A stretch of DNA of 64,000 bases, taken from the sequence record OQ108497.1; one strand, 5' to 3'. Numbering within the stretch: the first letter of the stretch is position 1; each line of letters opens with the position of its first letter. This document shows, piece after piece, positions 4,545 through 18,718 of the stretch. The stretch is from Escherichia phage EC_OE_11. The notes beneath the pieces are model-generated. The model made no database searches. It was given only the letters and a program-made list of their open reading frames with translations, and was not told the DNA's origin. The position numbers and the translations under genes were made by a program.

Positions 4545-5217
4545 ATTTTTGAGCCTCCTCATAAGAGATAAAAGTTTTACCATTGCGAAGATCCTCCAGT
4601 GATTGTTTATATTGTTCCCAGTTTACACCAATCCCCTGTTCTTTCTCTTCTTTTGACAGATTCGCAAAAGGTAAAGGATTGTCTCCAAACACATCGTCAG
4701 GATGGATAAACGCCATAATTCGAATAGGACATGGTACGCCTGGAATACCTCGGTTCAAACCTGCCAGCGGAACGCGCTGAATCCACTCTGCATCTTCATA
4801 CCCATAACCGTGGGTGTATGAGCGGAAATAGCCAGCTTTCTCAATAACTGCACGGGAATACATACCAAACTGGCACATCCCTAGTTCCCAAATAACCACT
4901 TCTCCTTCAATACCTTTTACTTTATCTTTAAAGTATTCAGGCATACCAAAGAAATCCCAACCATTTTCTTTTGCCTGTTTTACAAAATATGTTTCCCAAC
5001 CTGGAACAACAGGATAACAATCATCATCAAAAATAAACCAGTAGTCATACCCTTCATCATAAAACTTTTTCATCAGTTCATTACGGGCATATGCAACACC
5101 TTTTCGTTCCCGATCATACTGCACAACAAAAGTAGCATTAGGATCAGTCACAAGATAATCTTTAAGAGGACGCTTACCTACAGTAATAACACCAACACCG
5201 ATTTTTGTATTTTCCAA
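4531..5217 (-). CDS. glycosyltransferase, GT-A-like (DxD motif)
   Basis: WFIFDDDCYP DxD-type motif, 228 aa. Confidence 0.5.
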   Translation of the reverse strand: MENTKIGVGVITVGKRPLKDYLVTDPNATFVVQYDRERKGVAYARNELMKKFYDEGYDYWFIFDDDCYPVVPGWETYFVKQAKENGWDFFGMPEYFKDKVKGIEGEVVIWELGMCQFGMYSRAVIEKAGYFRSYTHGYGYEDAEWIQRVPLAGLNRGIPGVPCPIRIMAFIHPDDVFGDNPLPFANLSKEEKEQGIGVNWEQYKQSLEDLRNGKTFISYEEAQKYGKS

Positions 5218-6538: not shown

Positions 6539-7048
6539 TTAGCGATAGAATTGATGTTCTTTGTAGCGGTACACTAGAACCATATCTTTTTCCCAGTGTG
6601 CTTTTATTGTAGATTTTTTAAAGTATAATGCGCCTTTTGTAATATCTAATGCAATTCGTAATTCTGGAAAATGGTTATCGAGATAAAGTAGACGTTCTGC
6701 TATAGCCTTAGCTTCCTTCCACTTATCGTGTTCCATAACATTGAATGTCTTCGTGTAAGAGAATTGTCCTTTTTGAAACAAAACTTCTTTTATAGTATCA
6801 GGGAAATATGAATCTCTCGCCCTATTCAATACTACATTACCAACAGCAGACATACCGCGCTTTCCTTGATTACGACTTTCTGCATAGATTGCACAAGCTA
6901 ATAGATTTTCTTTACTATCACGCTTTGTACACTTGTGAACTACTTTAGCAGTTTTTACGTTTGCAGCTTCGGCTTGCGCCACAACAGGTGTAAATGTAAA
7001 AGCAGTTAAGGATAGTAACGCAATTGCGACAAAGGTTTTTATTGACAA
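6539..7048 (-). CDS. SleB-like cell wall hydrolase with N-terminal signal/SAR sequence (candidate endolysin)
   Basis: Signal-like N-terminus then CAIYAESRNQG...VGNVVLNRARD...QFSY motifs of SleB/Hydrolase_2 family. Confidence 0.75.
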   Translation of the reverse strand: MSIKTFVAIALLSLTAFTFTPVVAQAEAANVKTAKVVHKCTKRDSKENLLACAIYAESRNQGKRGMSAVGNVVLNRARDSYFPDTIKEVLFQKGQFSYTKTFNVMEHDKWKEAKAIAERLLYLDNHFPELRIALDITKGALYFKKSTIKAHWEKDMVLVYRYKEHQFYR

Positions 7049-7111
7049 ACTTGCCTCCTATTTTGTTAAACGAACTTTTATTGTAACACAGAAGAGGCTG
7101 TTTTGCAAGTG

Positions 7112-7130
7112 GAGGGGGATAATCCCCCTC
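7112..7130 (-). terminator. GC stem-loop (possible terminator or RNA-stability hairpin)
   Basis: GAGGGGG-ataat-CCCCCTC hairpin downstream of 7141..7755; weak U-tract. Confidence 0.35.
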
Positions 7131-7140
7131 TTAGACTCTG

Positions 7141-7755
7141 TTAGATATTGTAAACCTTTGTATGAGTTACTACACCATCTTCTACAAAATCAATACGTTC
7201 TTGATCCGTAACTAGTGCAGACAACACTTTAAATTTAATTTTTACACGTTCAAAAGCTGGTTGACCATCTTTAAGATAATTATGTTCAGTTGTCACTGTC
7301 TTGTTTACAAAATCAACTTTTGCTTTACCGTTTTCGCGCAAATGGAATGTTTTCCCTGCTTTATACACAATTTCAACATTACCTTCAAGAGTAATTCCTT
7401 CAAAAAGTTCACCCTCGTCTTCATTTTCTTCTTCATTTTCTTCACTTTTGAACAGACGACGAAACTCTTCCATATCAAGATAAACAACATCTTCAGAATG
7501 ACTATCAGTAAGGTATGTCCTACCATCCATTAACCCGAAATATTGCCAGATTGCAGAATAAACATCACAAGTTGATCCTGCGGTTTCCTTTAGTTTAGTT
7601 CCACGGATTACTTCATAAACTTCAAAATTGAAACCAGATTGCAAAGCATTAAACAGTACATCACTAACCTCAAAAGCATAATCTTTATTGCTGTTAATAT
7701 CTACAAGAAAATTGCCACTGCGAATAAGTTTTTTACCTTCTAAAGTAATACCCAT
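7141..7755 (-). CDS. hypothetical protein (acidic stretch)
   Basis: 204-aa ORF with AGAGGAG SD; EENEEENEDEGE run. Confidence 0.55.
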   Translation of the reverse strand: MGITLEGKKLIRSGNFLVDINSNKDYAFEVSDVLFNALQSGFNFEVYEVIRGTKLKETAGSTCDVYSAIWQYFGLMDGRTYLTDSHSEDVVYLDMEEFRRLFKSEENEEENEDEGELFEGITLEGNVEIVYKAGKTFHLRENGKAKVDFVNKTVTTEHNYLKDGQPAFERVKIKFKVLSALVTDQERIDFVEDGVVTHTKVYNI

Positions 7756-7782
7756 TGTTTTCTCCTCTTTTATTTCGAATAT

Positions 7783-7798
7783 GCGCCCCGAAGGGCGC
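7783..7798 (-). terminator. GC stem-loop (possible terminator or processing hairpin)
   Basis: GCGCCC-cgaa-GGGCGC hairpin downstream of TerD-like gene; weak U-tract. Confidence 0.35.
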
Positions 7799-7807
7799 TA
7801 TGATTTA

Positions 7808-8404
7808 TTACTCGAACCAATCGTCGCCAGCGCCAAACGCTTTAACTACATCGTAAATGTCAAGCCCAGCTTTACCTACACCATATGCTTTCAGTTTCCA
7901 TTCGCTATCTTCTCGCACCAGGGAGGCAACGTGGCAAATGGTGTTACCTGCAAGTTCTGGAGCCAAGAAGTCAAAGTCCAGCAGTTCAACATTACGTTCA
8001 TCATCGAAGATTTTAAGGAAACCTTCGGTAGCGTGACCAAGGCGTTTCTTACCCGTTTCGTCATCAATAGTAATTACGAATGCAATTTCCTGTGCTTCAG
8101 CAGAGATATTATCCAGTGTAACATCAATCTGCTCCATTTGTCCTACACCGTCACGAACATCTTCACCTGCAAAAGTAGAACGTTCAGGATCAAATTTCTG
8201 CGCGTAGCATACCAGGTGGCGAGGAGACAACAGTTCCGGCAGACCAGATGCGTTGTGTCGGCAAATCAGAGCACTAACATCCAGATCCAGTTTTTCGTTA
8301 GATTTCCAAGAGAATTCCAGACGAATGCGTTTCAGTGCTGGTGCGATCTTTTTCAGAGAAACTTTTTCGCTAGAACCTTTTTTCAGGGAAATTTTCTGAG
8401 TCAT
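7808..8404 (-). CDS. terD: TerD-domain protein (tellurite-resistance/stress family)
   Basis: Alignable to TerD consensus: ISLKKG..VSL, LDLDVSAL, EIAFVITIDD, SEWKLKAYGVG; AAGGAG SD. Confidence 0.8.
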   Translation of the reverse strand: MTQKISLKKGSSEKVSLKKIAPALKRIRLEFSWKSNEKLDLDVSALICRHNASGLPELLSPRHLVCYAQKFDPERSTFAGEDVRDGVGQMEQIDVTLDNISAEAQEIAFVITIDDETGKKRLGHATEGFLKIFDDERNVELLDFDFLAPELAGNTICHVASLVREDSEWKLKAYGVGKAGLDIYDVVKAFGAGDDWFE

Positions 8405-8476
8405 AATTTATTATCTCCTTTGTTGTTAATTTACGTTGTCTATTTTACTAATCTTTTCTACAAAGTCAAGCGTTTT

Positions 8477-9271
8477 TTACGCTTTTGCTCCAAATTTTTT
8501 AACCCACTCGCCAAACTCTTCGGATAACAGTTTATCGTAAAGTTCTTCATCAGACAAGGACAAATCTGCAATACCGATAAAATCAACATTATCGTACTCT
8601 TTTGCCAAGTCTTTCAGGAATTTAAAGTTTGCATTACCTACACCAACCATAAACCAGTAAACAGGTGTATTGCGGTGTTTGTTCAGCAAGCTACGTACTG
8701 CTGAAGTATCCATGTTCTCCCCGTCAGTTTGGAAGAAAATCATTGCAGGAGTACGATCAACTTGTGCATTAGTATCTACAACCTGTTCTACAACAGTACG
8801 TGTAACTTGTACAAGTTCTTTTTTACCAGTTAGTTTAGCAAGGAAACCTTTAGCCGGAACTTCTTCATACTCAACGACTTCGCGTGTAATATTTTTCATA
8901 GGTACACTGCCGAAGTATGTATCATAAATCTCTTGCATTACTGGAGCATAAGCTGTACCACCGTTGATGCAAACATTAGACATGCAAGAGCCGACATAAT
9001 CATCATACACATCAGCCGTTGCAGGAGGCAGTTCAAAAGAAGAACTATTGAAAGCCCACATGTCAATCTGTGCATTATCATCAAACTTCATACCAAACGG
9101 CAGCAGTTTACCTACAAAATCACTAACAGTGCCATCACGATACAGTTCACACATACTGCCCGAAATATCTAAGGCGCTACCGACACGAAGAACAACATCG
9201 TTAATCTTTTTCTTACGCAGAGATACAGTAAGAGTTTCTTGACGTTTTTTAAGACTGATTTTATTGGACAT
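8477..9271 (-). CDS. von Willebrand factor A domain protein (TerY-like)
   Basis: MIDAS-type DISGSM, GGTAY and FFQTDGE motifs; adjacent to TerD gene. Confidence 0.65.
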   Translation of the reverse strand: MSNKISLKKRQETLTVSLRKKKINDVVLRVGSALDISGSMCELYRDGTVSDFVGKLLPFGMKFDDNAQIDMWAFNSSSFELPPATADVYDDYVGSCMSNVCINGGTAYAPVMQEIYDTYFGSVPMKNITREVVEYEEVPAKGFLAKLTGKKELVQVTRTVVEQVVDTNAQVDRTPAMIFFQTDGENMDTSAVRSLLNKHRNTPVYWFMVGVGNANFKFLKDLAKEYDNVDFIGIADLSLSDEELYDKLLSEEFGEWVKKFGAKA

Positions 9272-9272
9272 A

Positions 9273-9542
9273 TTATTTCTCCTTTCTGAGTGTAATGTTA
9301 GTAACTTCTAAATCCACTTCTACTACTTCTGTATCATATAAAATACAGTTAAGTTGACCTCTTTGTGAACCATTCAGACACATTGCTTGGTTTGTATTAA
9401 CCTTAATAAACACTAAGTTTCTGAACGTATCTAAACCAGCATCTTGATAGGCAACATAATATACGAATGTATCACCTGCGTCAAGTTCTCCAAAAGATTT
9501 AGGTTCATCTGATTTGTCGTCTTTGATATTAAATTTAAGCAC
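9273..9542 (-). CDS. hypothetical protein
   Basis: 89-aa ORF. Confidence 0.45.
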   Translation of the reverse strand: MLKFNIKDDKSDEPKSFGELDAGDTFVYYVAYQDAGLDTFRNLVFIKVNTNQAMCLNGSQRGQLNCILYDTEVVEVDLEVTNITLRKEK

Positions 9543-10098
9543 TGTCTTCTCCTTTACCTGCTCTCAAGCCTAAATAGAAAGCCTCTCTGGTGATCTTTTG
9601 CAACTCGTTTAAAGAGATAGTTACAACTAAATCATCTTCAATTTCTAGCCTTGAGTCTTCTTCTGTCTCAATGCAAGTATTATGCACTTTGTGGTAAGGA
9701 TTGTCAACACGTTTAAATTTATTATTTTCAGTGCTGAAGAAGCAATCTGGATCTTCTTCTCCATCACCCCAGCCCTGGTTAGGGTCTTCTTCAGATCTTT
9801 CTGTTGGGATCTCACCTGTAAAGTGCTCTTCTAATACCAGAGCAATACCATCCCCAAGATCGGAAGAGAACATCAAATTACAAACTTCTTCCCAAGGCAT
9901 AGACCACTTGAATCTTTTACGATTGCCATGTTTATCTTCTTCGTTAGAGAAAACACCACCATAGCTATCATAATTGCCATACATCTCTTCAACAACTTTA
10001 CCACCTTTCAAAAGAAATAGGTAGCAAGGAGAGCCATCGAAAGAGGTAGAAAGAGCAGCATTACCAGACTCTTTGCACAAGAAACTAAAGCACCCCAT
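9535..10098 (-). CDS. hypothetical protein
   Basis: 187-aa ORF. Confidence 0.5.
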   Translation of the reverse strand: MGCFSFLCKESGNAALSTSFDGSPCYLFLLKGGKVVEEMYGNYDSYGGVFSNEEDKHGNRKRFKWSMPWEEVCNLMFSSDLGDGIALVLEEHFTGEIPTERSEEDPNQGWGDGEEDPDCFFSTENNKFKRVDNPYHKVHNTCIETEEDSRLEIEDDLVVTISLNELQKITREAFYLGLRAGKGEDSA

Positions 10099-10298
10099 TA
10101 TACACCAGCCTTAAGATCAATTAAAGCCAAAGTTGTTTCAGAATGTGTTTGCTCGTCTACAGGTGCAGTCATATGATAATACAAAAAGTCTTCGGCATCA
10201 TACCAATCTGACTCTTGACCTTGTTTCCAACCATCAATGAAAGCATCTTCCATGATGGTTTGTAACTCTTCACGAGTTAAGTGAATATCTTTACTCAT
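10098..10298 (-). CDS. hypothetical protein
   Basis: 66-aa ORF, coupled. Confidence 0.45.
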   Translation of the reverse strand: MSKDIHLTREELQTIMEDAFIDGWKQGQESDWYDAEDFLYYHMTAPVDEQTHSETTLALIDLKAGV

Positions 10299-10531
10299 TA
10301 CACATTCTCCTCTTTTACCAATTCCATCGTTGAACTATCAAAACCATCTTTAGAAGAATAGGTATAGACAGGACGTAGTTCTCGCAGGACAGTGAATACA
10401 TTAGGATCATCTAACCAAGCATCCTGGAGGAGAACATAACGATCTTCATTGTCGTACTGGACAGCAATCATAGAACCAGACAGTTTGTAAATTTTAATAT
10501 TCATAATATATTTCTCCTTAAAGTAGACCAC
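10298..10531 (-). CDS. hypothetical protein
   Basis: 77-aa ORF, coupled. Confidence 0.45.
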   Translation of the reverse strand: MVYFKEKYIMNIKIYKLSGSMIAVQYDNEDRYVLLQDAWLDDPNVFTVLRELRPVYTYSSKDGFDSSTMELVKEENV

Positions 10532-11621
10532 GTTTAACAGTTTGAATCATACCATCTTCAAGAGATTGTACTTCTTGGATGTAATCAATACGAGCAGCAC
10601 GGGCTTCAGTGTTGATTCGGTTAGTTTCTTCCAACATTTTAACTAAGTTTTCTTGATCGCGACGTAGTGTTTCAATATCCAATACTTGACGATTAGCAAG
10701 TTGTGTAGCTTCAATTTGGTTTTGTGCAGCCAGATCACTACCCATTGCAATAGCAGCATTAAATTCATTCAGTACATTGTTCTGTGTATCGGCTGCTTTC
10801 TTCTGGCGTAGACTTTCAATATACATAGAAAAGTTTGCAGAGTAAGCAGGGATAACATTATTCACAATGTTACGTGCTGATCGCATCAAACTTGCAGATA
10901 CTTTCTGCATACTTTGTACACGTGGCCCCATCTGAACACACAGTAAACGCAAGGCTTTCAGGTCTGCAATACGAATTTCAAGCAGATCCATAGTATCACG
11001 AGTACGTTGACGCTCTTCTACTTCATTTTCAGGTAGAGTATTAAGGCGAACTTCTTCTTTTTCATAAGTAGCTGTTAGAAGCTCTATATCCCTGTTTAAG
11101 CTAAGAGCATATTTTGCAATAGCCTCTTCTAAACGTTGCAGATATCGTAAAGAATCTTCTTCTTTTTTCAAGTCTGTTTGGAGTGTCTTTACCAAACCTT
11201 CAATACGATTATTGATGGTGTCAAACTCTCCAAACAAATCTTCTTTCATACCTAACACTTTCTTAACTAGCTTACCTAAACCTTTAGATTGTTTAATAGA
11301 ATTAGGATCAAGTTGCTTTGCTTGCTTAATAAGTGCAGTTAAACGTTCACTCATTTCATCTCCCTGGGATGAACGCTGGTGTTTAAGCACTTCAGCATTA
11401 AGGTTACGAAGAGTAAGTCCTGCATCAGCACCAACTTGTTCAATCTCTTCACGAGACATTGGAGGCAGCATTTGTACAGGTCGTGCAACAGCAGGTGCAT
11501 ATACAGGGCTTGCATCCATAGCACTTGGAGCAAACAAAGACTTACTCTTTTCTGTTGTTGCCGTGAATACACTCATTTCAGACGGTTTGCTTTTTACGGC
11601 ACTGATAAAAGGACTGGACAT
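10518..11621 (-). CDS. TelA-like toxic-anion-resistance family protein (tentative)
   Basis: 367 aa, disordered N-terminus then long coiled-coil; size, architecture and Ter context match TelA/KlaB; not motif-proven. Confidence 0.45.
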   Translation of the reverse strand: MSSPFISAVKSKPSEMSVFTATTEKSKSLFAPSAMDASPVYAPAVARPVQMLPPMSREEIEQVGADAGLTLRNLNAEVLKHQRSSQGDEMSERLTALIKQAKQLDPNSIKQSKGLGKLVKKVLGMKEDLFGEFDTINNRIEGLVKTLQTDLKKEEDSLRYLQRLEEAIAKYALSLNRDIELLTATYEKEEVRLNTLPENEVEERQRTRDTMDLLEIRIADLKALRLLCVQMGPRVQSMQKVSASLMRSARNIVNNVIPAYSANFSMYIESLRQKKAADTQNNVLNEFNAAIAMGSDLAAQNQIEATQLANRQVLDIETLRRDQENLVKMLEETNRINTEARAARIDYIQEVQSLEDGMIQTVKRGLL

Positions 11622-11689
11622 TCAATTTCCTCCATATTCTTTAGTAGATGGTGATACCTCTGTACCACCATCATAACACAAATTAAGTA

Positions 11690-12541
11690 TTAAACAAACA
11701 TATCTAAATAATTTGTAGTAATAAATGCTCCATCTGCTTCCAGATTAACATAACCAGTAGCATTAGTGGTTAAGAAATCCAGATCGAAGGACTCTTTAAC
11801 ACCCCGTACCTCAACACGAGAGATATCGAATACAGGTAGTGTAACAGCCTCTTCGTGCAATACCGTACCTTTGTAGGTTGCCTTAATGATAAACTTGATA
11901 TTACCCGTTCCAGCATCATACAAAACACTTTCAAACCCTTTGAGAGTATATTTATCACCAGAAGTGAAGTGCAAAGTTGCTTTGTTTACAGTACGTTTTT
12001 TACGAGGAGTTCCTTTCACACGTTTATGATCACTACGTTTTTTGTATTTAGGAATGAATACAAACGATACACTCTCAAGAAAGGTATCAACATCAAGGAT
12101 TTTAATATCCTCTGTTGCAGCAAATTTTGAAGTCGTTGCATCAAAATGCTTTCCCCTGCGATCATACATAAAGATATCAAACCGATCTTCTAAATCAAAC
12201 AAATTATGTATCTTAATTTCAGAATGCTTGCACATTGCAGCAACCTTAAACTCTTCAAAACGTGGGTGTTCTACCAGTTCTTCAAGTTTTACACCAAAGA
12301 CAGTATATGGTTTCGAAGTTTTTTCTGGTGTTGGCATTACAGAAGCATAATCACCGATTGCGCTCTTAAAGCAAAATTGTTCTTGACCTGTATTTTTACC
12401 AACGAATTTACAGTATTCGTCATCGTGCATGCTTTCCTTGGTAGTACCAACAAACTCAAAACCATCTTTATTCTTCTCAAGAATTTCTTGATTAAAGATC
12501 CAACCTTCCAGGCGATACACTTTACCAACTTCTAGTTTCAT
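11690..12541 (-). CDS. hypothetical protein
   Basis: 283-aa ORF. Confidence 0.55.
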   Translation of the reverse strand: MKLEVGKVYRLEGWIFNQEILEKNKDGFEFVGTTKESMHDDEYCKFVGKNTGQEQFCFKSAIGDYASVMPTPEKTSKPYTVFGVKLEELVEHPRFEEFKVAAMCKHSEIKIHNLFDLEDRFDIFMYDRRGKHFDATTSKFAATEDIKILDVDTFLESVSFVFIPKYKKRSDHKRVKGTPRKKRTVNKATLHFTSGDKYTLKGFESVLYDAGTGNIKFIIKATYKGTVLHEEAVTLPVFDISRVEVRGVKESFDLDFLTTNATGYVNLEADGAFITTNYLDMFV

Positions 12542-12576
12542 CTGTTTCTCCTTCTTGTTTAATCTGTATTAAATTA

Positions 12577-13182
12577 TTAACGACGACGTGAGCTACTAAA
12601 ACTACGTTTCGACGAAGAATAACTTTTCGAAGACTTACTATAAGAGCTAATAGGACTTGAGTAAGACTTACGAGCAGAGTAATCACTATTCACTTTTGTT
12701 GTTGATGGGCGTGAATACGTTTGTACACTTTGCTGCTTAATTGTGTTTTGTTTAGTGGTTGTATATGTATTTACAGGTTTATCATAAAAACTACGCTTTT
12801 GTGTTGTATATGATTTACTGTTAGTTGTAGGAGCAGCATTGTTATTAATAATGGTTGTATTGCTACCACCATCTCTATAACCACCACCGCCACTATTACC
12901 ACTCAACATATGACCAAGAAGCATACCTGTAGCAAATTCACCTACACCAGAAGAACTACTACCGCCTCCTTGCACAACAACTGTTGAAGGTTGTGCAGGT
13001 GCTGCTTGAACAACTTGAGGTGCAGGTTGATTTACATATTGTTCATCTACCATCTGATTTGGTGTTTGTTGGTAACGTTGATTTTGTACATTTTCAGAAT
13101 CATCACAACCTACCAGCAATACACTACCTAATACAACTGCAACAATAAAAGATTTAATGTTTTTCATTTGTAACCCTCTCAT
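12577..13182 (-). CDS. lipoprotein, low-complexity S/T/Y/K-rich
   Basis: Signal peptide with LLVGC lipobox; C-terminal repetitive S/Y/K region. Confidence 0.55.
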   Translation of the reverse strand: MRGLQMKNIKSFIVAVVLGSVLLVGCDDSENVQNQRYQQTPNQMVDEQYVNQPAPQVVQAAPAQPSTVVVQGGGSSSSGVGEFATGMLLGHMLSGNSGGGGYRDGGSNTTIINNNAAPTTNSKSYTTQKRSFYDKPVNTYTTTKQNTIKQQSVQTYSRPSTTKVNSDYSARKSYSSPISSYSKSSKSYSSSKRSFSSSRRR

Positions 13183-13360
13183 TTAAAGTCTCAACACAAT
13201 TTTTAAAATCCCTAGAGAAACAATACATCTGTTCTCCGTTCCTGTTGATAGTAATTGTATGATTATCAATGTATGTTGTCAAGATAAAAATCAAACAAAA
13301 TAACCCTAAAGCAAAACAAATATTTTCAAACAGAATCCAAAGAACACGTAAAACCACCAT
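13154..13360 (-). CDS. small membrane protein (hypothetical)
   Basis: 68-aa hydrophobic ORF. Confidence 0.35.
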   Translation of the reverse strand: MVVLRVLWILFENICFALGLFCLIFILTTYIDNHTITINRNGEQMYCFSRDFKNCVETLNERVTNEKH

Positions 13361-13375
13361 CAGATCACCTCAACA

Positions 13376-13393
13376 AAGCCCCCGAAGGGGCTT
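13376..13393 (-). terminator. intrinsic terminator-like hairpin downstream of terC
   Basis: aaGCCCC-cgaa-GGGGCtt followed on minus strand by TTTGTT. Confidence 0.5.
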
Positions 13394-13399
13394 AATGAA

Positions 13400-14377
13400 T
13401 TAAGCAACAGCCTGGTCTTCTTTTTCAGGGAAGATTAAACTTGCAATGACACCCAGCCCCAGAGTACCTAACACAATATACATACTGATCGTCGGATCAA
13501 TGTGTGCTGGCAGGAAACTCACTTTTGCGTGCAGAGTTTCTGCAAACGGGTGATACATCAGTTTTACACCCACAAATACCAGGACTACGATAACTGCTTT
13601 CTCCAGATGAACCAAATATTTCAGTGCAACACTAAGGACAAAGAACAGAGCACGTAGACCTAAAATTGCACACAGCATTGAAGAAAATACAAGCAGAGGT
13701 TCTTGTGTCACTGCAATTACTGCTGGAACAGAGTCTACTGCAAAGATTACGTCAACCATTTCCATTACAAACACACAAACCAGAGCCGGAGTTGCTACAC
13801 GAACACCATTTTTGATTGTGAAGAACTTCTCACCATCCATCTGATCAGATACAGGGAACAGCTTACGAACAATGCGAGTAGCCCAGTGTTTAGAGTAATC
13901 AACTTCTGCGTCATTATCTCCAGCGAATACCATTTTAGCTGCACAGAAAAGGATGACCGCACCGAAGAAGATATTAACATACCAGCCCAAACTCAACAAA
14001 TAAGTGCCTACTGCTACAAACACACCTCGGAAGACAATCGCACCTGCAATACCCCAAAGTAGAATCTTGTGTTGCAAGTGTGTGCTTTTAATACCAAAAC
14101 TTGCGAATACTGCCACAAATACTACTAAGTTATCTACAGAAAGAGATTTCTCCAACACATATCCACTCAAGAACAAGCTCGCAAAATCAGCACCGTGCTG
14201 GAAGTATACAAAACCATAGTAGGCTAATGATACCCCAATCCAGAAAATTGACCAACCAATTGCAGATTTAAATGAAATTTCTTTGTTTTCTCTGTGTCCA
14301 AAGAAATCAATACAAATCGACAACACTAAAATACCCACTAAAACAACCACATCAATAATTGGGAAACCCAGTTGCAT
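13400..14377 (-). CDS. terC: TerC-family integral membrane protein
   Basis: Multi-TM protein with duplicated TerC signature (LEKSLSVDNLVVF...LWGIAGAIVFRG and AVDSVPAVIAV...ILGLRALFF). Confidence 0.8.
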   Translation of the reverse strand: MQLGFPIIDVVVLVGILVLSICIDFFGHRENKEISFKSAIGWSIFWIGVSLAYYGFVYFQHGADFASLFLSGYVLEKSLSVDNLVVFVAVFASFGIKSTHLQHKILLWGIAGAIVFRGVFVAVGTYLLSLGWYVNIFFGAVILFCAAKMVFAGDNDAEVDYSKHWATRIVRKLFPVSDQMDGEKFFTIKNGVRVATPALVCVFVMEMVDVIFAVDSVPAVIAVTQEPLLVFSSMLCAILGLRALFFVLSVALKYLVHLEKAVIVVLVFVGVKLMYHPFAETLHAKVSFLPAHIDPTISMYIVLGTLGLGVIASLIFPEKEDQAVA

Positions 14378-14395
14378 TCTTATCTCCTCTTTAAT

Positions 14396-14414
14396 GCGGA
14401 GGACAATCCTCCGC
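14396..14414 (-). terminator. GC stem-loop just upstream of terC SD (terminator/attenuator)
   Basis: GCGGAGG-acaat-CCTCCGC hairpin between 14455..14703 and terC. Confidence 0.4.
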
Positions 14415-14454
14415 TCTATGTCTTATACTATAAACTGTTTTTAAAGAAAGTCAA

Positions 14455-14703
14455 CTAGTTCAGTTCTGTAATTTTAAGTTTATCTTCTTTGTTAATGATA
14501 GGGAAAGCTACAGCATCACCTACGTCATCAATAAAGCAAATAGCAAGACCACCTTCCACTTTACTAATCTGACCCTTAAAGGCGCGATACGGGGCAGGAA
14601 CTTTATCTCCATCTTCAAGGATAATAGCCTCGTAAACCTTGCCGATAGTACAATCACGAGTGTTTCTAAATTTTTCAAGCACTTCAACATTTACTTTACG
14701 CAT
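14455..14703 (-). CDS. hypothetical protein
   Basis: 82-aa ORF. Confidence 0.5.
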   Translation of the reverse strand: MRKVNVEVLEKFRNTRDCTIGKVYEAIILEDGDKVPAPYRAFKGQISKVEGGLAICFIDDVGDAVAFPIINKEDKLKITELN

Positions 14704-14718
14704 ATAAAAAATCCTCTC

Positions 14719-14925
14719 TTATTTGTTAGATTGAAAGATACCACGAAGTACCGCAAGAATGAACGTCACACAGACTACACTCCAAAACGTTACAGGAACA
14801 TGATGCCAGTCTAAACCGATAATGTCAATCATATAGTTGTATGCTAAAAGCAGCAGCCAACTAGGGATTAACACAATCAAAAACACAACAATAAAACAAC
14901 CTAATACTGCTAAAACACCTGCCAT
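14719..14925 (-). CDS. small membrane protein
   Basis: 68 aa, two predicted TM helices. Confidence 0.5.
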   Translation of the reverse strand: MAGVLAVLGCFIVVFLIVLIPSWLLLLAYNYMIDIIGLDWHHVPVTFWSVVCVTFILAVLRGIFQSNK

Positions 14926-14934
14926 ACTTTCTCC

Positions 14935-15651
14935 TTATTTCAGTTTGTAAACAATTACATTTAAACCTTTGTTTACTAGAGTTTCTTCGATCATAAGTTT
15001 TACAATATTCCAAGAACCTCCAGCCAAACCACAACCAAGCATTGGTAAACCTACAATTTTACCGCCTGAAGATACAACATCGTCTCCCATACTATCTAGC
15101 GCATTGTAGATAGCTTCATAATTCAGATCACGCTTACCTTCCTCACGACTACTATAACCATATTGTCCATATAAATTATAAATTGTCAAATTGTTTTCTG
15201 TATATTTGGTAAACGTACCTAATTTTTTATAATCACCACGTTTAGTGGCACAATCTGCTTTAAACGCACCAGGCCACTTGCTTTTAATTTTTGGTGCAAT
15301 ACCACTACCCATAGTGCAAAAACAGTTACAGCAGTGTGCTATAGCGTCTATATCGCCTCTCTCGGCTGCTGCTAAAAGATCACCGTATACCTCAACGATA
15401 CCTGCTGGATAACTTGTTACAATTTCATCTTCCCAGTACATTTTCTCTACACCACCGATCAGTGCAAAGTTTTGTGTAATGCGATCATCAATATAGTTAA
15501 GACCTGAAACATACACAGCGTATTCATCCTGTGCTGTAATACCTTGCACACGAATTCTTAAGACACCATCTTTATCTGTTGCTACACGCCCAAAATCTTT
15601 TTCTGTAATATTGGTGATAGGATCTCCGAAAGTCATTACTTTATTAGACAT
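14935..15651 (-). CDS. macro-domain-like protein (putative ADP-ribose binding/processing), tentative
   Basis: DAIAHCCNCFCTMGSGIA resembles macro DAIVNAAN..LGGGGV motif, later LPMLGCGLAGG; start moved to ATG at 15651 (SD AAAGGGGA) to clear PRTase overlap. Confidence 0.4.
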   Translation of the reverse strand: MSNKVMTFGDPITNITEKDFGRVATDKDGVLRIRVQGITAQDEYAVYVSGLNYIDDRITQNFALIGGVEKMYWEDEIVTSYPAGIVEVYGDLLAAAERGDIDAIAHCCNCFCTMGSGIAPKIKSKWPGAFKADCATKRGDYKKLGTFTKYTENNLTIYNLYGQYGYSSREEGKRDLNYEAIYNALDSMGDDVVSSGGKIVGLPMLGCGLAGGSWNIVKLMIEETLVNKGLNVIVYKLK

Positions 15652-16501
15652 AATAATCCCCTTTAACATTAGATTTGTTGATAATGTTGCTTTCAAAAAA
15701 TTGACGTAGGAAATCAAAGTTCTCTTTGTATTTTTCAATGTTATTGTAGCCTTCTGCAAGGCAACCAAAGAACAGTTGTTCTACATAATACAAAGGAAGC
15801 TGTGAAAGTGCAATTTTAAAATCAACTTCGCTTTGACTCATTAGATACTTAATAGGACGAACCAAACATTTAGCATCAGTTTCTTGCTTAATCATTTTAA
15901 TAAAAGCTGCCAGGTTATTGATATAGTTGAAGTTAAGTGCAGCTTCGGTGTTGGCTTCTGTACCTTCATACTTTGCAAAGTACAGGAAAAACGTATCGTT
16001 TTCAACACCTTCTTTGTCTAAAATTTCAATAAGTTTTTCTTCGTGTGTTCCTGTAATATTAACATCATCAATGAAAATCAGAGTTTTATTACCCCAGAAA
16101 TCACGATTGATAGAGAAAGTGTCACCATCGATCAAAGCCTTACGATCTTCTTTGCTAAGAAATCCATAATCATTGATATAGCTCACTTTACGATGAACGA
16201 TATCCCACTCCACTGGTTTACCACCTTTGATAGAGATTAGGTAGTTGAGGTGATCTACAAAATGTTCAGATAACACTGTAGCTGCATTTTTCACATAGTT
16301 ATATGGAGATGGAATAACAACAAAACTTTCATTTACCAGTCGTTCTTCATACTTAGAAAAGAAACTTTCAGCCAGAATGCGCCCCATTCTTTTTGCTGCC
16401 TGGTTACTACCAAACTTTAGTTTGGAATAATCTGCAATGTTAAATTTTGCTTCCTTCAGGTTAGTAAAAGTATTAGCAAAATGTTGAATTTGATTACGCA
16501 T
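15644..16501 (-). CDS. phosphoribosyltransferase-like protein (Ter-associated PRTase type)
   Basis: PRPP-binding-like motif LIFIDDVNITGTHE; AGAGGA SD. Confidence 0.6.
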   Translation of the reverse strand: MRNQIQHFANTFTNLKEAKFNIADYSKLKFGSNQAAKRMGRILAESFFSKYEERLVNESFVVIPSPYNYVKNAATVLSEHFVDHLNYLISIKGGKPVEWDIVHRKVSYINDYGFLSKEDRKALIDGDTFSINRDFWGNKTLIFIDDVNITGTHEEKLIEILDKEGVENDTFFLYFAKYEGTEANTEAALNFNYINNLAAFIKMIKQETDAKCLVRPIKYLMSQSEVDFKIALSQLPLYYVEQLFFGCLAEGYNNIEKYKENFDFLRQFFESNIINKSNVKGDYYV

Positions 16502-17150
16502 TAATAAGTTCCTCTTTTTTAAGTTTAGCCAACAAGTTTTCTGGATTAATAATATGACAGAACTTCATCCCTATGTCAACAGCTTTTCCATCATAGATCA
16601 AACTATCTCCAACGTGTAAGATCTCCTCTGGTGCGAGATCAAACGTTACCATTTCATCAAAAGAGAGTTTAAAAAACCTAGGATCTGGTTTACACAAGCA
16701 AAACTCATCAGAAAAATGCATAAAGTCGAATGGTAATTTTGTCAAGCCAGAATATACAGCTAAGAAACTACCAGGTACAAAATTGGTATTGCTCTTAATA
16801 CTCAAAGAATAGGTTGAACTTAGCTCTTCCAACTTCTTGCAAAGTTCAGGGTTTAATGTTGGAGGATGTTTTATAAACATTGCTAAACAGTCTCTTTTTA
16901 ACCCATCCACCTTATCAAGATCAATGTTCAAATGAGCAGAAAGTGTTTCCCAAGCATTTCTAGATGTTCCACAAATGCCTTTTTCTGCTTTTAAATCCAA
17001 GAGAGTTTTTACCTCTTTATATACGGTAGCTGCTTCTACCTCAGAACAAGAGGCATACTCGGCAATAACCTTGTTGCGTTCTTCTGCATACAAAGGATTA
17101 GCAGTAATAAGAGTATTCCATACATCAAAAGAAATATGCTTAACAGTCAT
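16494..17150 (-). CDS. HAD-superfamily hydrolase (phosphatase)
   Basis: Motif I ISFDVWNTL and C-terminal HVGDSLIYDG; start set to ATG at 17150 with GGAGG SD. Confidence 0.6.
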   Translation of the reverse strand: MTVKHISFDVWNTLITANPLYAEERNKVIAEYASCSEVEAATVYKEVKTLLDLKAEKGICGTSRNAWETLSAHLNIDLDKVDGLKRDCLAMFIKHPPTLNPELCKKLEELSSTYSLSIKSNTNFVPGSFLAVYSGLTKLPFDFMHFSDEFCLCKPDPRFFKLSFDEMVTFDLAPEEILHVGDSLIYDGKAVDIGMKFCHIINPENLLAKLKKEELINA

Positions 17151-17319
17151 TTTTAATCCTCCGTCCAAAAGAATATCATCTGCTTAATTTTATTGATCTC
17201 TTGATGTAGTAACTTTCCAGCATGTAATTGATCTTTAATATTGACAGCAAGAATTTCAAGCTCCGTCAGTTTTTCTTGGATAGCTTTATATTCATCATCT
17301 GTAAGCATTTTCTTCCCCT

Positions 17320-17523
17320 TTAGAATGGTAATCTTTGTATGTCACTTGTCCCCACACCAAGAAGTCTAGCAATATCCTTATCTAAAAGCAACTCTTTTTG
17401 TTCTAAAATGTTAATCAGATCTCCTAATACTTCTTTAATGTCACGATCATTTTTAGCAACGTGACCACCTGCGGTATCAACTTTATCTTTAAAAATAAAA
17501 TAATGATCCATAATACCCTCCAT
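17320..17523 (-). CDS. hypothetical protein
   Basis: 67-aa ORF. Confidence 0.45.
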   Translation of the reverse strand: MEGIMDHYFIFKDKVDTAGGHVAKNDRDIKEVLGDLINILEQKELLLDKDIARLLGVGTSDIQRLPF

Positions 17524-17530
17524 ATAAATA

Positions 17531-17550
17531 AAGGAGGCTTTCGCCTCCTT
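17531..17550 (-). terminator. intrinsic terminator (bidirectional-looking)
   Basis: aAGGAGGC-tttc-GCCTCCTt with T-rich flanks on both strands, downstream of AAA+ ATPase gene. Confidence 0.55.
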
Positions 17551-17557
17551 TTATCAC

Positions 17558-18718
17558 TTAGTAAGAACGACCACCAAACACATACTCTGTGTAGTTTTTA
17601 CGTTCTTTGTTTTTAATAACAACTTCAATGTTGTTACCTTTATCATCGGTGAACATAAAGTGATAACCGTCACCACCCATTGTACGGATGTGTTTTTCAT
17701 CATACGTTAGCAAGATACGGTCTACACCCCAGTAGTAGTCACCTTCTTCATCTTTATCTTCTACGGTAACGATCCCTTCCATTTCAGGAAGATGCTCTTC
17801 ACCTAGTTTATGGTCTACAGCTACAACATAACGATTACCACTAAACAAACCTTGTGCTGTCATACCGTCAATATCGGTATCTGCCGAAACATCTCCTGTA
17901 CGATCTACACCGTTAACTTTCAGAAGTTTAACCTCTTTTGCAGCATAGCGGTGTTCAGTAATACTGATACCCATTAGTGCAAGTGCATCAGAGAATTTGT
18001 CATTAGGGTAACGGTTAAGTTCTTCTACTAATGACTGAACAATATCAAAGTTCAAATCCACGGAGAGATTATAAAGCGTTTCAAAGTCTGGTAAGAAGGC
18101 TTTGTTCTCCAGATTTTTAGCCAGATAATCATCCATAGTAGCTTTAGGTAGTTTCTTATAGCTAAAACTGTAGAAAATACGGCTAGGACGATTACGCAAA
18201 AATTCTGATACATAACCATCATTTTTAGTCAATACAAACAGTTTGTCGTAGCCACCAACACCATCCAGCAGGGTAAGCAAACCATCTTGTGCATCTTTTT
18301 CAGCATACAGTTTATCAAATTCATCGATCATAATCATTACAGGTTGTGTGATTTTAGACATAAAATTGATAAAGCCTTCACCATTAAAAGCACTGCCGAT
18401 AGAAATAGTAGGAATACCCATTTCACGAAGAGCAGAAGACAGCATTTTAGCTTGCAAAGTTTTACCGCTACCTTTCGTACCTTCAAGGAGAACACCTGTG
18501 TTTTTACCTTTGCGGCTAAGGAACGTTTTGATAATACGTTCTGATTTATCATCAGTATCACCGTATGTTACTGAAGGGACTTCCATATCGTTTTTAGGAT
18601 ACAGGAAGAACTCACCACTTTGAGTAACACCTACACCAAAAGTTCCTGCTGGAATTTCTTCAATATCTGTACCAGATTTCTGACGCAGGAAGATTTGATT
18701 GCCGAATACTGTAAACAT
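17558..18718 (-). CDS. AAA+ ATPase (paralog 1)
   Basis: Walker A GTKGSGKT, Walker B MIMIDEFDK, sensor-1 FVLTKN; paralog of 32445..33572. Confidence 0.7.
   Translation of the reverse strand: MFTVFGNQIFLRQKSGTDIEEIPAGTFGVGVTQSGEFFLYPKNDMEVPSVTYGDTDDKSERIIKTFLSRKGKNTGVLLEGTKGSGKTLQAKMLSSALREMGIPTISIGSAFNGEGFINFMSKITQPVMIMIDEFDKLYAEKDAQDGLLTLLDGVGGYDKLFVLTKNDGYVSEFLRNRPSRIFYSFSYKKLPKATMDDYLAKNLENKAFLPDFETLYNLSVDLNFDIVQSLVEELNRYPNDKFSDALALMGISITEHRYAAKEVKLLKVNGVDRTGDVSADTDIDGMTAQGLFSGNRYVVAVDHKLGEEHLPEMEGIVTVEDKDEEGDYYWGVDRILLTYDEKHIRTMGGDGYHFMFTDDKGNNIEVVIKNKERKNYTEYVFGGRSY

Follow-up and report, generated by a model that had tools for sequence, protein, structure and literature searches.

The window analysed here, 64,000 nucleotides of Escherichia phage EC_OE_11 (OQ108497.1), is of Justusliebigvirus (phi92-like) type, with 98.7% identity to phage JohannJBalmer and 97.6-98.7% identity to phi92-like genomes (30 among the matches listed). 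It contains, with NrdG and NrdD directly upstream, a Ter-type gene cluster that is conserved among phi92-like (Stephanstirmvirinae) phages (Table 1). The six open reading frames in which the initial annotation had recognised a Ter-like stress module are real, lie on the minus strand and each score above the Pfam gathering threshold. Its placement of the cluster in a lytic phage beside nrdDG was correct, as were the family assignments and the likeness to bacterial Ter neighbourhoods. We observe a composite of three things: a Ter core, a HAD–PRTase_3 pair and a macrodomain protein. The single module originally proposed therefore stands in its families but not in its unity, because the HAD–PRTase pair is separable from the core and the macrodomain is near-ubiquitous in phages.

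Table 1 Features of the Ter-type cluster and its surroundings
Feature	Position	Strand	Evidence
Signal-peptide cell-wall hydrolase	6539-7048		Hydrolase_2
GC-rich hairpin just past TerD stop	7783..7798	-	GCGCCC-ttcg-GGGCGC
TerD-domain protein, 198 aa	7808..8404	-	Pfam TerD E = 5e-28, 98.2 bits (cut-off 25.3)
Sigma-70-like promoter site upstream of TerD	8442..8469	-	TTGACT-16-TAAAAT, consensus match only
vWA protein, TerF C-terminal type, 264 aa	8477..9271	-	vWA-TerF-like E = 7e-39, 134.5 vs 29.4 bits
Four small/medium genes (89, 187, 66, 77 aa)	9273..10531	-	Each in a PHROG of unknown function
TelA-like protein, 367 aa	10518..11621	-	Pfam TelA E = 5e-34, 118.3 vs 30 bits
283-aa protein	11690..12541	-	Only C-terminal part conserved in phAPEC8, 05F01
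Predicted lipoprotein, 201 aa, Gly/Ser-rich	12577..13182	-	Lipobox LVGC then DD, read from sequence
Small single-pass membrane protein, 68 aa	13154..13360	-	Hydrophobic stretch in sequence
TerC/Alx-family inner-membrane protein, 325 aa	13400..14377	-	Pfam TerC E = 1.2e-38, 133.1 vs 27.8 bits
Promoter-like site and 5'-UTR hairpin upstream of TerC	14396..14454	-	TTGACT-16-TATAGT; stem GCGGAGGA-ttg-TCCTCCGC
Two small genes: 82 aa and 68-aa two-pass membrane protein	14455..14925	-	
Macrodomain protein (TARG1/SCO6735/DarG-like)	14935..15651	-	Pfam Macro E = 1.9e-7
PRTase_3 (ComF-like type I phosphoribosyltransferase), 285 aa	15644..16501	-	Pfam E = 1.5e-41, 143 vs 28.7 bits
HAD-superfamily hydrolase, 218 aa	16494..17150	-	Pfam Hydrolase E = 4.6e-6, 27.6 vs 26.4 bits, marginal

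The Ter core

The four core genes, encoding an Alx-type TerC, TelA, a TerF-type vWA protein and one TerD-domain protein, are all intact, and this combination recurs in many unrelated phages. The TerD and TerC calls rest on significant profile matches. TerD is 100% identical to phi92 gp172, as it is in many Justusliebigvirus records, and matches the solved Klebsiella TerD 2kxt (E = 8.6e-15) at ~27% identity, counted by hand on that alignment. The DLD motif is retained; in the phage protein the acidic Ca2+ loop, GDNRTGEGDGDDE, takes the degenerate form GEDVRDGVGQMEQ. The vWA protein, originally assigned to the TerY type, is indeed a vWA protein but of the TerF C-terminal type, with a MIDAS site intact in sequence (D35-x-S37-x-S39, T106, D183). 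TelA falls in PHROG 5890 'tellurite resistance' and is modelled, at low confidence (pLDDT 57), as an all-helical coiled coil; its bacterial relatives share only 21-27% identity with it. TerC matches the Alx subfamily profile TIGR03718 of NCBIfam (322.8 bits, cut-off 246.4) and has both acidic repeats, EKSLSVDN and EMVDVIFAVDSVPA. No TerB domain was matched among the open reading frames of the block, which has a single TerD-domain protein, and PADLOC assigned none of the Ter proteins to a defence system.

The HAD–PRTase_3 pair and the macrodomain

Both enzymes of the pair have the folds first proposed for them. An AlphaFold2 model of the PRTase (pLDDT 91) retrieves 6-oxopurine PRTases (HGPRT), ComF and PyrR in Foldseek, each with probability 1.0, so that the predicted structure confirms the PRTase fold. 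All of 29 homologues keep its PRPP loop, DDVxITGTHExK, unchanged, and its identity to the phi92 PRTase (under gp185-187) is 98.9%. Support for the marginal HAD call comes from a match to the solved HAD protein 2om6 (E = 2.5e-8), which has an identical motif I, FDVWNTL. The second catalytic Asp is missing (motif DVWNT), and phosphatase chemistry is therefore not assured.

HAD lies directly upstream of the PRTase in every locus examined, usually with overlapping ends. In unrelated metagenomic phage contigs (L007, L008, L010), and also in contigs L026 and L027, Ter genes and the pair lie within 7-10 kb of one another, and jumbo phages of Caulobacter, Brevundimonas and Xanthomonas carry both in one genome. 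Elsewhere the pair is 27–165 kb from Ter genes or has none nearby, and in rhizobial phages and rhizobial genomes it is a stand-alone cassette with Ter genes absent from its vicinity, so the pair need not be functionally tied to the Ter core.

The protein initially described as macro-like does contain a Macro domain, as judged by Pfam and by PDB matches (5e3b, 2e-15; TARG1, 3e-10; DarG, 7e-4), preceded by a lineage-specific N-terminal extension of ~85 aa. Its start overlaps the PRTase stop by 8 nt. DarG matches in PADLOC and NCBIfam are limited to the macro part. This gene is a neighbour of the Ter module and not a Ter-specific part of it; it is a separate, general phage gene whose product most likely removes ADP-ribose marks.

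Conservation and predicted expression signals

Synteny was compared across three lineages, Justusliebigvirus, Phapecoctavirus (phAPEC8) and phage 05F01, and extends through all of them at 48-81% identity. Phapecoctavirus keeps the gene order at 49-81% amino-acid identity. In 05F01 the TerC slot is occupied by a DUF475 protein, itself matching TerC, and the cell-wall hydrolase follows TerD in all three lineages. The same gene block is carried by 53 phage records. Against two relatives, the Ter core has 49-50 nucleotide differences and only 4 amino-acid changes; the core genes and the HAD–PRTase_3 pair are intact and under purifying selection. Because gene order is kept in Phapecoctavirus, and because Ter genes and HAD–PRTase_3 recur together in unrelated metagenomic phage contigs, the clustering is not due to chance.

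The four genes between vWA and TelA have no Pfam match; three of them are kept in phAPEC8, two of those also in 05F01. The 283-aa protein has no Pfam, NCBIfam or credible PADLOC match, and the predicted lipoprotein, with weak Pfam matches only, is 32-36% conserved in phAPEC8 and 05F01. The single-pass membrane protein is 49% identical in phAPEC8. Upstream of TerC, neither small gene has a Pfam match, and the two-pass protein shows 60% identity in phAPEC8, with a 'holin' label in one record.

The cluster sits among genes of early/middle type, behind promoter-like sites of host type as read from the sequence. The site upstream of TerD is not conserved in phAPEC8 or 05F01. The one upstream of TerC is conserved in both, with the stem of its hairpin changed on both sides, and the phAPEC8 annotators marked a host-type promoter at the same spot. 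No riboswitch, including the yybP-ykoY Mn type, was detected upstream of TerC. The hairpin past the TerD stop possibly ends the transcription unit; as the T-run downstream is weak, we can only infer a terminator function. In phage EmPhiS, Ter genes are expressed early in infection (bioRxiv 10.1101/2025.10.29.685362).

Proposed function and alternative explanations

The reading we favour, tentatively and with a little less than even confidence, is that the cluster encodes an early-expressed inner-membrane and cation-handling device that would shield infected cells against superinfection by other phages and against pore-forming colicins, with HAD–PRTase making a ligand. Host RNA polymerase would transcribe the cluster soon after infection. 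TerC in the inner membrane would move divalent cations (Mn2+, Zn2+ or Ca2+), while TerD, the vWA protein and coiled-coil TelA would assemble beneath it, and the whole assembly would change or stabilise the membrane. The infected cell could then resist second insults, such as DNA entry by a superinfecting phage or pore-forming colicins, until the phage's own lysis. HAD–PRTase would join a purine-like base to PRPP and then remove the phosphate, and the nucleoside-like small molecule formed may be a ligand or signal for the Ter system. Bacterial phenotypes, in their turn poorly understood, are the source from which this mechanism is extrapolated. The roles suggested by the initial annotation (host takeover, membrane-stress management or counter-defence) are likewise conjectural. 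According to Whelan 1995, as cited in PMC8386662, the R478 ter genes confer phage inhibition and colicin resistance; K. pneumoniae deleted for terC is less resistant to phage, Zn and Mn (PMC12054061); and TerC proteins act in Mn export or in metal loading onto exported enzymes (PMC10550928, PMC13274385). Superinfection exclusion by phage Ter systems has been suggested before (PMC7824862, PMC6141743). The degenerate Ca2+ loop of TerD, the lack of a TerB match and the single TerD-domain protein count against the proposed mechanism, as do the second catalytic Asp missing from HAD, the occurrence of HAD–PRTase far from or without Ter genes, and the negative PADLOC result for the Ter proteins.

An unlikely alternative is that the cluster purely handles metal, adjusting divalent cations in the infected cell with no role in exclusion. 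An Alx-type TerC would then export Mn2+/Zn2+ or load metal onto exported phage proteins, and TerD and the vWA protein would be cytoplasmic Ca2+/Mg2+/Mn2+ binders. The bacterial TerC activities and the Zn and Mn phenotype given above are consistent with such a role, as are the membership of TerC in the Alx 'metal homeostasis' subfamily, the intact MIDAS site and the exported proteins of the block, namely the lipoprotein and the signal-peptide hydrolase. The absence of the bacterial Mn riboswitch also fits, expression therefore not being tied to host metal sensing. TelA and the HAD–PRTase pair are left unexplained, however; Hydrolase_2 enzymes are not known to be metalloenzymes, and since the entire region is syntenic, adjacency in one subfamily is weak evidence. 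Metal and exclusion roles are in any case not exclusive, as phage resistance, too, was lost in the bacterial terC mutant (PMC12054061).

Rather improbable, in our estimate, is a nucleotide-based counter-defence in which the functional unit consists of HAD, PRTase_3 and the macrodomain, and the Ter core is a mere neighbour. Such a unit would synthesise or break down a nucleotide or a molecule derived from ADP-ribose and so blunt host immunity, for instance through reversal of DarT-type DNA ADP-ribosylation or interference with a nucleotide signal. Phages are known to encode orphan antitoxin mimics, DarG-like or NADAR, that act against DarTG (PMC11825919, PMC11481870, PMC13309987), the macrodomain resembles DarG, TARG1 and SCO6735, and in 05F01 a PARP-like gene follows downstream of the PRTase, a few genes away. 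The stand-alone rhizobial cassettes and the overlapping ends of the three genes point the same way, but such overlaps are common across the whole genome. Macrodomain homologues are found in 2,908 phage records and PRTase homologues in 156, which leaves most macro-bearing records without the pair; of the more distant HAD–PRTase loci examined with complete flanks, XaC1 alone carries a macro gene, ~8 kb away. The repeated occurrence of HAD–PRTase with TerD, TerC and vWA in unrelated contigs argues for a Ter link, not a macro link, and neither HAD nor PRTase matched PADLOC or known anti-defence genes. That the genes are recent host-derived passengers, conferring tellurite resistance on the host or doing nothing, and irrelevant to lytic growth, is very improbable and largely refuted. 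E. coli Ter operons are often on prophage-like islands (PMC8193136) and many database labels read 'tellurite resistance', but the GC content of the block is the phage average, the bacterial homologues of TerD and TelA are distant, the closest relatives are all phage contigs, purifying selection is strong, synteny spans genera and the phage is virulent.

Comparison with known systems

The cluster is an old, phage-adapted form of the bacterial Ter 'hub'. The bacterial operon nearest in composition to the phage core is yceCDEFGH of Bacillus subtilis, an envelope-stress operon that unites TerD-domain proteins, TerC (YceF/MeeF) and TelA (YceH); it lacks a vWA protein and the HAD–PRTase pair, and is controlled by envelope-stress sigma factors, in contrast to the phage promoter. 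Bacterial terZABCDEF (IncHI2 plasmid R478, E. coli O157, Klebsiella) and the phage block have TerC, the TerD domain and a TerF-type vWA in common. In its classical R478/O157 form the operon also includes a TerB and several paralogues with a TerD domain (TerZ, A, D, E, F). The phage block has no detectable TerB and one TerD-domain protein against five paralogues, and it adds TelA, kept by bacteria in separate telA/klaA or yceH loci. The identification of YceF as MeeF is published (PMC10550928). Phage TerC passes the TIGR03718 cut-off for the subfamily of E. coli Alx, but unlike Alx and other riboswitch-controlled TerC proteins it has a short conserved hairpin after the promoter-like site in place of the yybP-ykoY Mn riboswitch. 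The ADP-ribose-removing enzymes DarG and TARG1/SCO6735 align with the phage macrodomain, which lacks the C-terminal toxin-binding half of DarG (49.8 bits, against a DarG cut-off of 250) and is of an orphan kind to which records of T4-like phages give the label Tk.4 or 'phosphatase'.

Among phages, phi92, phAPEC8 and ZCKP1 (Stephanstirmvirinae) have the same Ter genes as the window, with no difference of substance. The order NrdDG – HAD – PRTase – macro – TerC – TelA – vWA – TerD – cell-wall hydrolase is the same in phAPEC8; Phapecoctavirus differs in the absence of the AAA gene beside the block and in a shorter macrodomain without the N-terminal 85-90 aa. Many near-identical phi92-like genomes already have the labels 'tellurite resistance', 'TerC', 'phosphoribosyltransferase', 'macrodomain' and 'HAD'. 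In print, a 2015 paper lists phi92 gp172, gp173 and gp178 as Ter proteins (PMC4690881), colicin and superinfection protection was proposed for four tellurite-related genes of ZCKP1, from a sister genus, in 2018 (PMC6141743), and in 2021 Iyer, Anantharaman, Krishnan, Burroughs and Aravind described phage Ter systems that include PRTase and HAD (PMC7824862). The cluster is thus real and conserved but not new: both the phage Ter systems with PRTase/HAD and the Ter genes of phi92 and its sister genus are published and annotated in GenBank. The systems of PMC7824862 share TerD, TerC, TerF-type vWA and TelA with the window, and fuller versions, such as that of Acinetobacter phage ME3, add PRTase and HAD as 'signal biosynthesis' enzymes; that study focused on jumbo phages, stated that related smaller tailed phages have such systems as well, and did not dissect the phi92-like block. 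Beyond it, HAD–PRTase emerges here as a fixed adjacent pair that is separable from the core.

Gene families in the Ter block

From 4.5 kb to 21 kb, the window encodes genes on the minus strand only, and each of the six families that the initial annotation had read there scores above its curated Pfam cut-off; the protein it had called 'macro-like' is a macrodomain by Pfam. TerD also matches the solved structure 2kxt (E = 8.6e-15), the Pfam match of TelA spans profile positions 13–330 of 332, and TerC falls into the Alx 'metal homeostasis' subfamily (TIGR03718, 322.8 bits, above a cut-off of 246.4). The vWA protein, previously assigned to the TerY type, matches the TerF type in Pfam instead, and its sequence carries a full MIDAS site (D35, S37, S39, T106 and D183). 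No PDB sequence match was obtained for the vWA protein, and TelA, whose structure prediction was poor (pLDDT 57), gave nothing but coiled-coil noise in the PDB, by sequence or by profile.

Features of the Ter block and its surroundings
Feature	Coordinates	Strand	Match
Glycosyltransferase-like gene	4531-5217	minus	TET-associated glycosyltransferase family, below threshold: E = 6.8e-5, 23.3 vs 27.5 bits
Cell-wall hydrolase	6539-7048	minus	Hydrolase_2 (SleB-type)
Extra gene between hydrolase and TerD	7141-7755	minus	
TerD	7808-8404	minus	Pfam TerD E = 5e-28, 98.2 bits vs cut-off 25.3
vWA-TerF-like	8477-9271	minus	Pfam E = 7e-39, 134.5 bits
TelA	10518-11621	minus	Pfam E = 5e-34, 118.3 bits vs cut-off 30
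Predicted lipoprotein	12577-13182	minus	
TerC	13400-14377	minus	Pfam E = 1e-38, 133.1 bits
Promoter-like site and 5'-UTR hairpin of TerC	14396-14454	minus	
Macrodomain	14935-15651	minus	Pfam macrodomain
PRTase_3 'ComF-like'	15644-16501	minus	Pfam E = 1.5e-41
HAD 'Hydrolase'	16494-17150	minus	Pfam E = 4.6e-6, barely over cut-off
AAA ATPase	17558-18718	minus	Generic AAA matches only

Ten other ORFs of the block, including a predicted lipoprotein and two small membrane proteins, have no Pfam match, and each belongs to a PHROG of unknown function. The predicted lipoprotein, encoded between TerC and TelA, is a Gly/Ser-rich protein of 201 aa with a lipobox (LVGC) followed by Asp-Asp and a very basic tail rich in Ser, Lys and Arg, and is conserved at 32–36% in two other lineages; Asp-Asp after the lipobox is the textbook signal for inner-membrane retention. 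On the far side of TerD lies a cell-wall hydrolase gene with an apparent N-terminal signal peptide, which follows TerD directly in the Stephanstirmvirinae relatives phAPEC8 (Phapecoctavirus) and Klebsiella phage 05F01, and after one extra gene in the window. Further along, one of three adjacent glycosyltransferase-like genes has a weak family match, a sequence hint that could point to DNA or surface sugar modification.

The block is an established and conserved part of these phages

Escherichia phage JohannJBalmer (BASEL Bas62) shares 98.7% identity with the 12 kb around the block; the remaining 29 Justusliebigvirus (phi92-like) genomes listed share 97.6–98.2%, and at least 80% of this stretch is covered by 53 records. 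Relatives already carry labels such as 'tellurite resistance', 'tellurium resistance protein TerC', 'putative phosphoribosyltransferase', 'putative macrodomain protein' and 'HAD-like', and the window TerD is phi92 gp172 at 100% identity. Whether the arrangement had been described before, a question that the initial annotation left open, is thus settled by these annotations and by publications: PMC4690881 names gp172, gp173 and gp178 of phi92 as TerD and tellurite proteins, PMC6141743 discusses four ZCKP1 tellurite genes as protection against colicins and superinfection, phage Ter systems with PRTase and HAD have been described with a mention of 'related smaller tailed phages' (PMC7824862), and similar phage Ter clusters appear in PMC8386662 and PMC9796965. 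Since it has been published for this lineage and for phages generally, the Ter cluster of the window is already known, and it is ordinary for this phage group. Our additions are modest: the separability of the HAD–PRTase pair, the macrodomain as a part not specific to Ter, the DVWNT motif I of the HAD protein, and the promoter-like site and hairpin at TerC.

The order of the four core genes is the same in phAPEC8, at 67–81% identity, and in the more distant 05F01, where TelA, vWA and TerD are 40–63% identical. At the TerC position, 05F01 encodes a DUF475 protein (8512–9576 of its locus, L011; E = 5e-93), which has a TerC match as well (3e-17). This suggests that what the position requires is a membrane protein of the TerC superfamily and not TerC as such. 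The four core families also sit together in phiPsa374-like Pseudomonas phages, and homologues of TelA and TerD occur in 244 and 147 phage records, respectively.

Counted against two close relatives, the core with its four genes has 49 and 50 nucleotide differences but only four amino-acid changes each, while HAD and PRTase together have 29 and 21 nucleotide differences with six and three amino-acid changes. These genes are clearly under purifying selection. Recent capture from a host was rejected, based on a GC content equal to that of the rest of the phage, on the low identity of bacterial homologues (21–27% for TelA) and on close relatives that are found only in phages, the nearest homologues of PRTase and TelA being encoded by phages or phage-like contigs. 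The block genes are long-term phage residents.

Four records named 'Campylobacter phage' with C. jejuni as host (MG065645, MG065689, MG065656 and MG065650) also encode PRTase or TerD relatives, at 99.6–100% identity to the window, with MG065650 (B15) matching at Phapecoctavirus-level identity. The host labels of these records look doubtful.

HAD and PRTase_3 form a separable cassette

The initial annotation had proposed a single module; the Ter core, the HAD–PRTase pair and the macrodomain are indeed co-located, but they are three separate things. Across phages, 156 records contain the PRTase; they span Stephanstirmvirinae, a Xanthomonas jumbo phage, Rhizobium Kleczkowskaviridae and Caulobacter/Brevundimonas jumbo siphophages, and HAD is always immediately upstream, usually with overlapping gene ends. 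Within 7–10 kb of the pair, three unrelated metagenomic phage contigs carry TerC, TerD and vWA-TerF genes, and two contigs binned as Bacteroidetes likewise have it near Ter genes. Its distance to TerD grows to 27 kb in CcrColossus and 165 kb in XaC1, and no Ter gene was found in about 20 kb around it in Rhizobium phage TM30 or within 10 kb of it in rhizobial genomes. Since the pair is near Ter genes in some loci and distant from them, or without them, in others, HAD–PRTase_3 is a separable cassette that often, though not always, accompanies Ter genes. The rhizobial copies, in Rhizobium, Sinorhizobium and Ensifer genomes (regions L014–L024, including plasmid pRL10), show about 40% identity; one region (L018) has genes for a LysE exporter and a Clp protease next to the pair.

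With no PDB sequence match for the PRTase, only the fold search was informative. An AlphaFold2 model built from 29 homologues (pLDDT 91) matched 6-oxopurine PRTases (HGPRT), ComF and PyrR in Foldseek, all with probability 1.0, and the PRPP loop DDVxITGTHExK is invariant across the 29 homologues, which are 44–81% identical. The earlier PRTase call is therefore backed by both a type I PRTase fold and a PRPP loop.

The HAD call, weak in Pfam, is strengthened by the solved HAD structure 2om6 (archaeal PH0253), which the window protein matches at E = 2.5e-8 and with which it shares the unusual motif I, FDVWNTL. The window protein has the nucleophile D9, the Lys of motif III (CKPD) and motif IV (GDSLIYD); the +2 position of motif I is a Trp, where HAD phosphatases carry the second catalytic Asp. 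The fold is that of a HAD protein; judging from these residues, phosphatase chemistry is not assured, and FDVWNTL may mark a HAD subgroup with different chemistry. Fuller versions of this putative module for a nucleoside-like metabolite, reportedly described by Anantharaman, Iyer and Aravind in 2012, are said to include an ATP-grasp enzyme and a CitE-like lyase as well; our Pfam scan of the block ORFs gave no ATP-grasp or lyase family match.

The macrodomain and AAA neighbours

Homologues of the macrodomain occur in 2,908 phage records, including T4-like phages (labelled Tk.4 or 'phosphatase') and PVP-SE1, and the protein is a neighbour of the Ter core, not a Ter-specific part. Its N-terminal extension of about 85 residues has no family match, is missing from the phAPEC8 homologue and occurs in this genus only, so that at least 80% protein coverage is reached in only 69 of the 2,908 records. 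The nearest solved relatives are SCO6735, BT1257 and TARG1, and more weakly DarG. Identity with the DarG antitoxin was rejected, as the match covers only positions 4–147 of 338 in the DarG profile (49.8 bits vs a cut-off of 250): DarG combines a macrodomain with a C-terminal DarT-binding domain and adjoins darT, whereas the window protein matches the macro part only, with no darT neighbour among the window genes.

In 05F01, a full PARP-like protein with WGR, PARP regulatory and PARP catalytic domains (L011 1335–2615) is encoded a few genes downstream of the PRTase, adjoining a radical SAM gene; in the window, by contrast, the macrodomain is directly downstream of the PRTase. The AAA ATPase was rejected as part of the module based on the terminator-like hairpin after its gene, its absence from the phAPEC8 position and its generic matches.

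Expression signals upstream of TerC

A TTGACT-16-TATAGT promoter-like site lies directly upstream of TerC; between it and the ATG come first a hairpin and then a Shine-Dalgarno sequence. This layout is common to three Stephanstirmvirinae lineages as GTTGAC-17-TAnnnT plus a 5'-UTR hairpin (phAPEC8 locus L003 15552–15625; 05F01 locus L011 about 8430–8500), and the hairpin stem still pairs despite changes on both sides (GCGGAGGA/TCCTCCGC vs GCGGGGA/TCCCCGC). In the annotation of phAPEC8, this site carries a host-type promoter label. A second promoter-like site, upstream of TerD, is present in this genus only. Since a promoter and terminator scan showed no enrichment over shuffled sequence, the promoter-like sites stay putative, and we give weight only to the conserved one upstream of TerC.

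Bacterial Alx/TerC genes are usually controlled by a yybP-ykoY Mn riboswitch in the leader, whereas the window TerC has the promoter-like site and hairpin at that place. No yybP-ykoY Mn2+ riboswitch was found at the Rfam gathering threshold in the whole window, or at E ≤ 1 in 7000–18000, and Rfam matched no other known RNA in the window. The 5' hairpin could serve in mRNA stabilisation or regulation.

Possible functions of the block

We tentatively favour, at slightly less than an even chance, an inner-membrane device made early in infection, because published evidence on colicins and phages, on TerC and metals and on phage EmPhiS can be combined in it. Bacterial ter genes, as far as Whelan 1995 is relayed in PMC8386662 and PMC9796965, confer phage inhibition, resistance to pore-forming colicins and tellurite resistance; K. 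pneumoniae becomes less resistant to phage, Zn and Mn when terC is deleted (PMC12054061); proteins of the TerC family act in Mn export or metal loading of secreted enzymes (PMC10550928, PMC13274385); and the ter genes of EmPhiS are expressed early in infection (bioRxiv 10.1101/2025.10.29.685362). In such a device, TerC would move divalent cations, TerD, vWA and the coiled-coil TelA would assemble beneath it, and the altered membrane would resist superinfecting phages and colicins up to programmed lysis. A nucleoside-like ligand would come from the HAD–PRTase pair: a nucleotide would be formed from a base and PRPP and then dephosphorylated, as in the model that PMC7824862 summarises. The proposal is weakened by the unmatched TerB, the single TerD-domain protein with its degenerate Ca2+ loop, the HAD protein lacking the second catalytic Asp, and an enzyme pair separable from the core.

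The zinc, manganese and metal-loading reports also bear on metal handling as the only function, which we consider somewhat unlikely. Nucleotide or ADP-ribose counter-defence by HAD, PRTase and macrodomain, independent of Ter, would suit a cassette that can leave the core, and is plausible for the macrodomain alone, phage DarG and NADAR mimics being known (PMC11825919, PMC11481870, PMC13309987); for the three proteins together we regard it as unlikely. Useless passenger genes, in a block under purifying selection, are extremely improbable.

Beyond the membrane device itself, it is conceivable, if rather improbable, that HAD–PRTase_3, shared by very different phages and rhizobia, makes a purine-like nucleoside that is the ligand of TerD, vWA, TelA and TerC, in a self-contained signal-plus-effector device sealing the inner membrane against rival phages and colicins. 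If true, a Ter system would for the first time have a defined biochemical function. Ter genes count among the most widespread 'stress' genes of bacteria, and decades of study have brought no agreement on what they do. The compact phage version, four core genes and a two-enzyme cassette, may serve well as an experimental handle, phi92 and BASEL Bas62 being easily handled E. coli phages. This opportunity was already evident from published genomes and papers, to which the window adds no new object.

Comparison with known Ter and defence systems

The classical terZABCDEF operon contains TerB and several TerD-domain paralogues (TerZ, A, D, E and F), whereas all 20 ORFs in 7141–18718 yielded only one TerD domain and no TerB match; the block is therefore not a classical terZABCDEF operon. 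The TerY-P triad, which joins a TerY vWA protein to a Ser/Thr kinase and a PP2C phosphatase, was likewise rejected, as the window vWA is of the TerF type and has no PADLOC match, and no kinase or PP2C domain was found in the block. None of the Ter proteins, nor HAD or PRTase, matched a defence system in PADLOC, so the block is not filed as a known defence system. The Klebsiella TerD loop GDNRTGEGDGDDE aligns to GEDVRDGVGQMEQ in the window TerD; the DLD motif is kept, and the alignment indicates a degenerate Ca2+ loop.

All four elements of the Ter stress-response hub, a concept reportedly due to Anantharaman, Iyer and Aravind in 2012, are present: TerD, a TerC integral membrane protein, TelA and a TerF-type vWA with MIDAS. 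The cluster of the window is a member of the TerC/TerD/TelA/vWA Ter hub.
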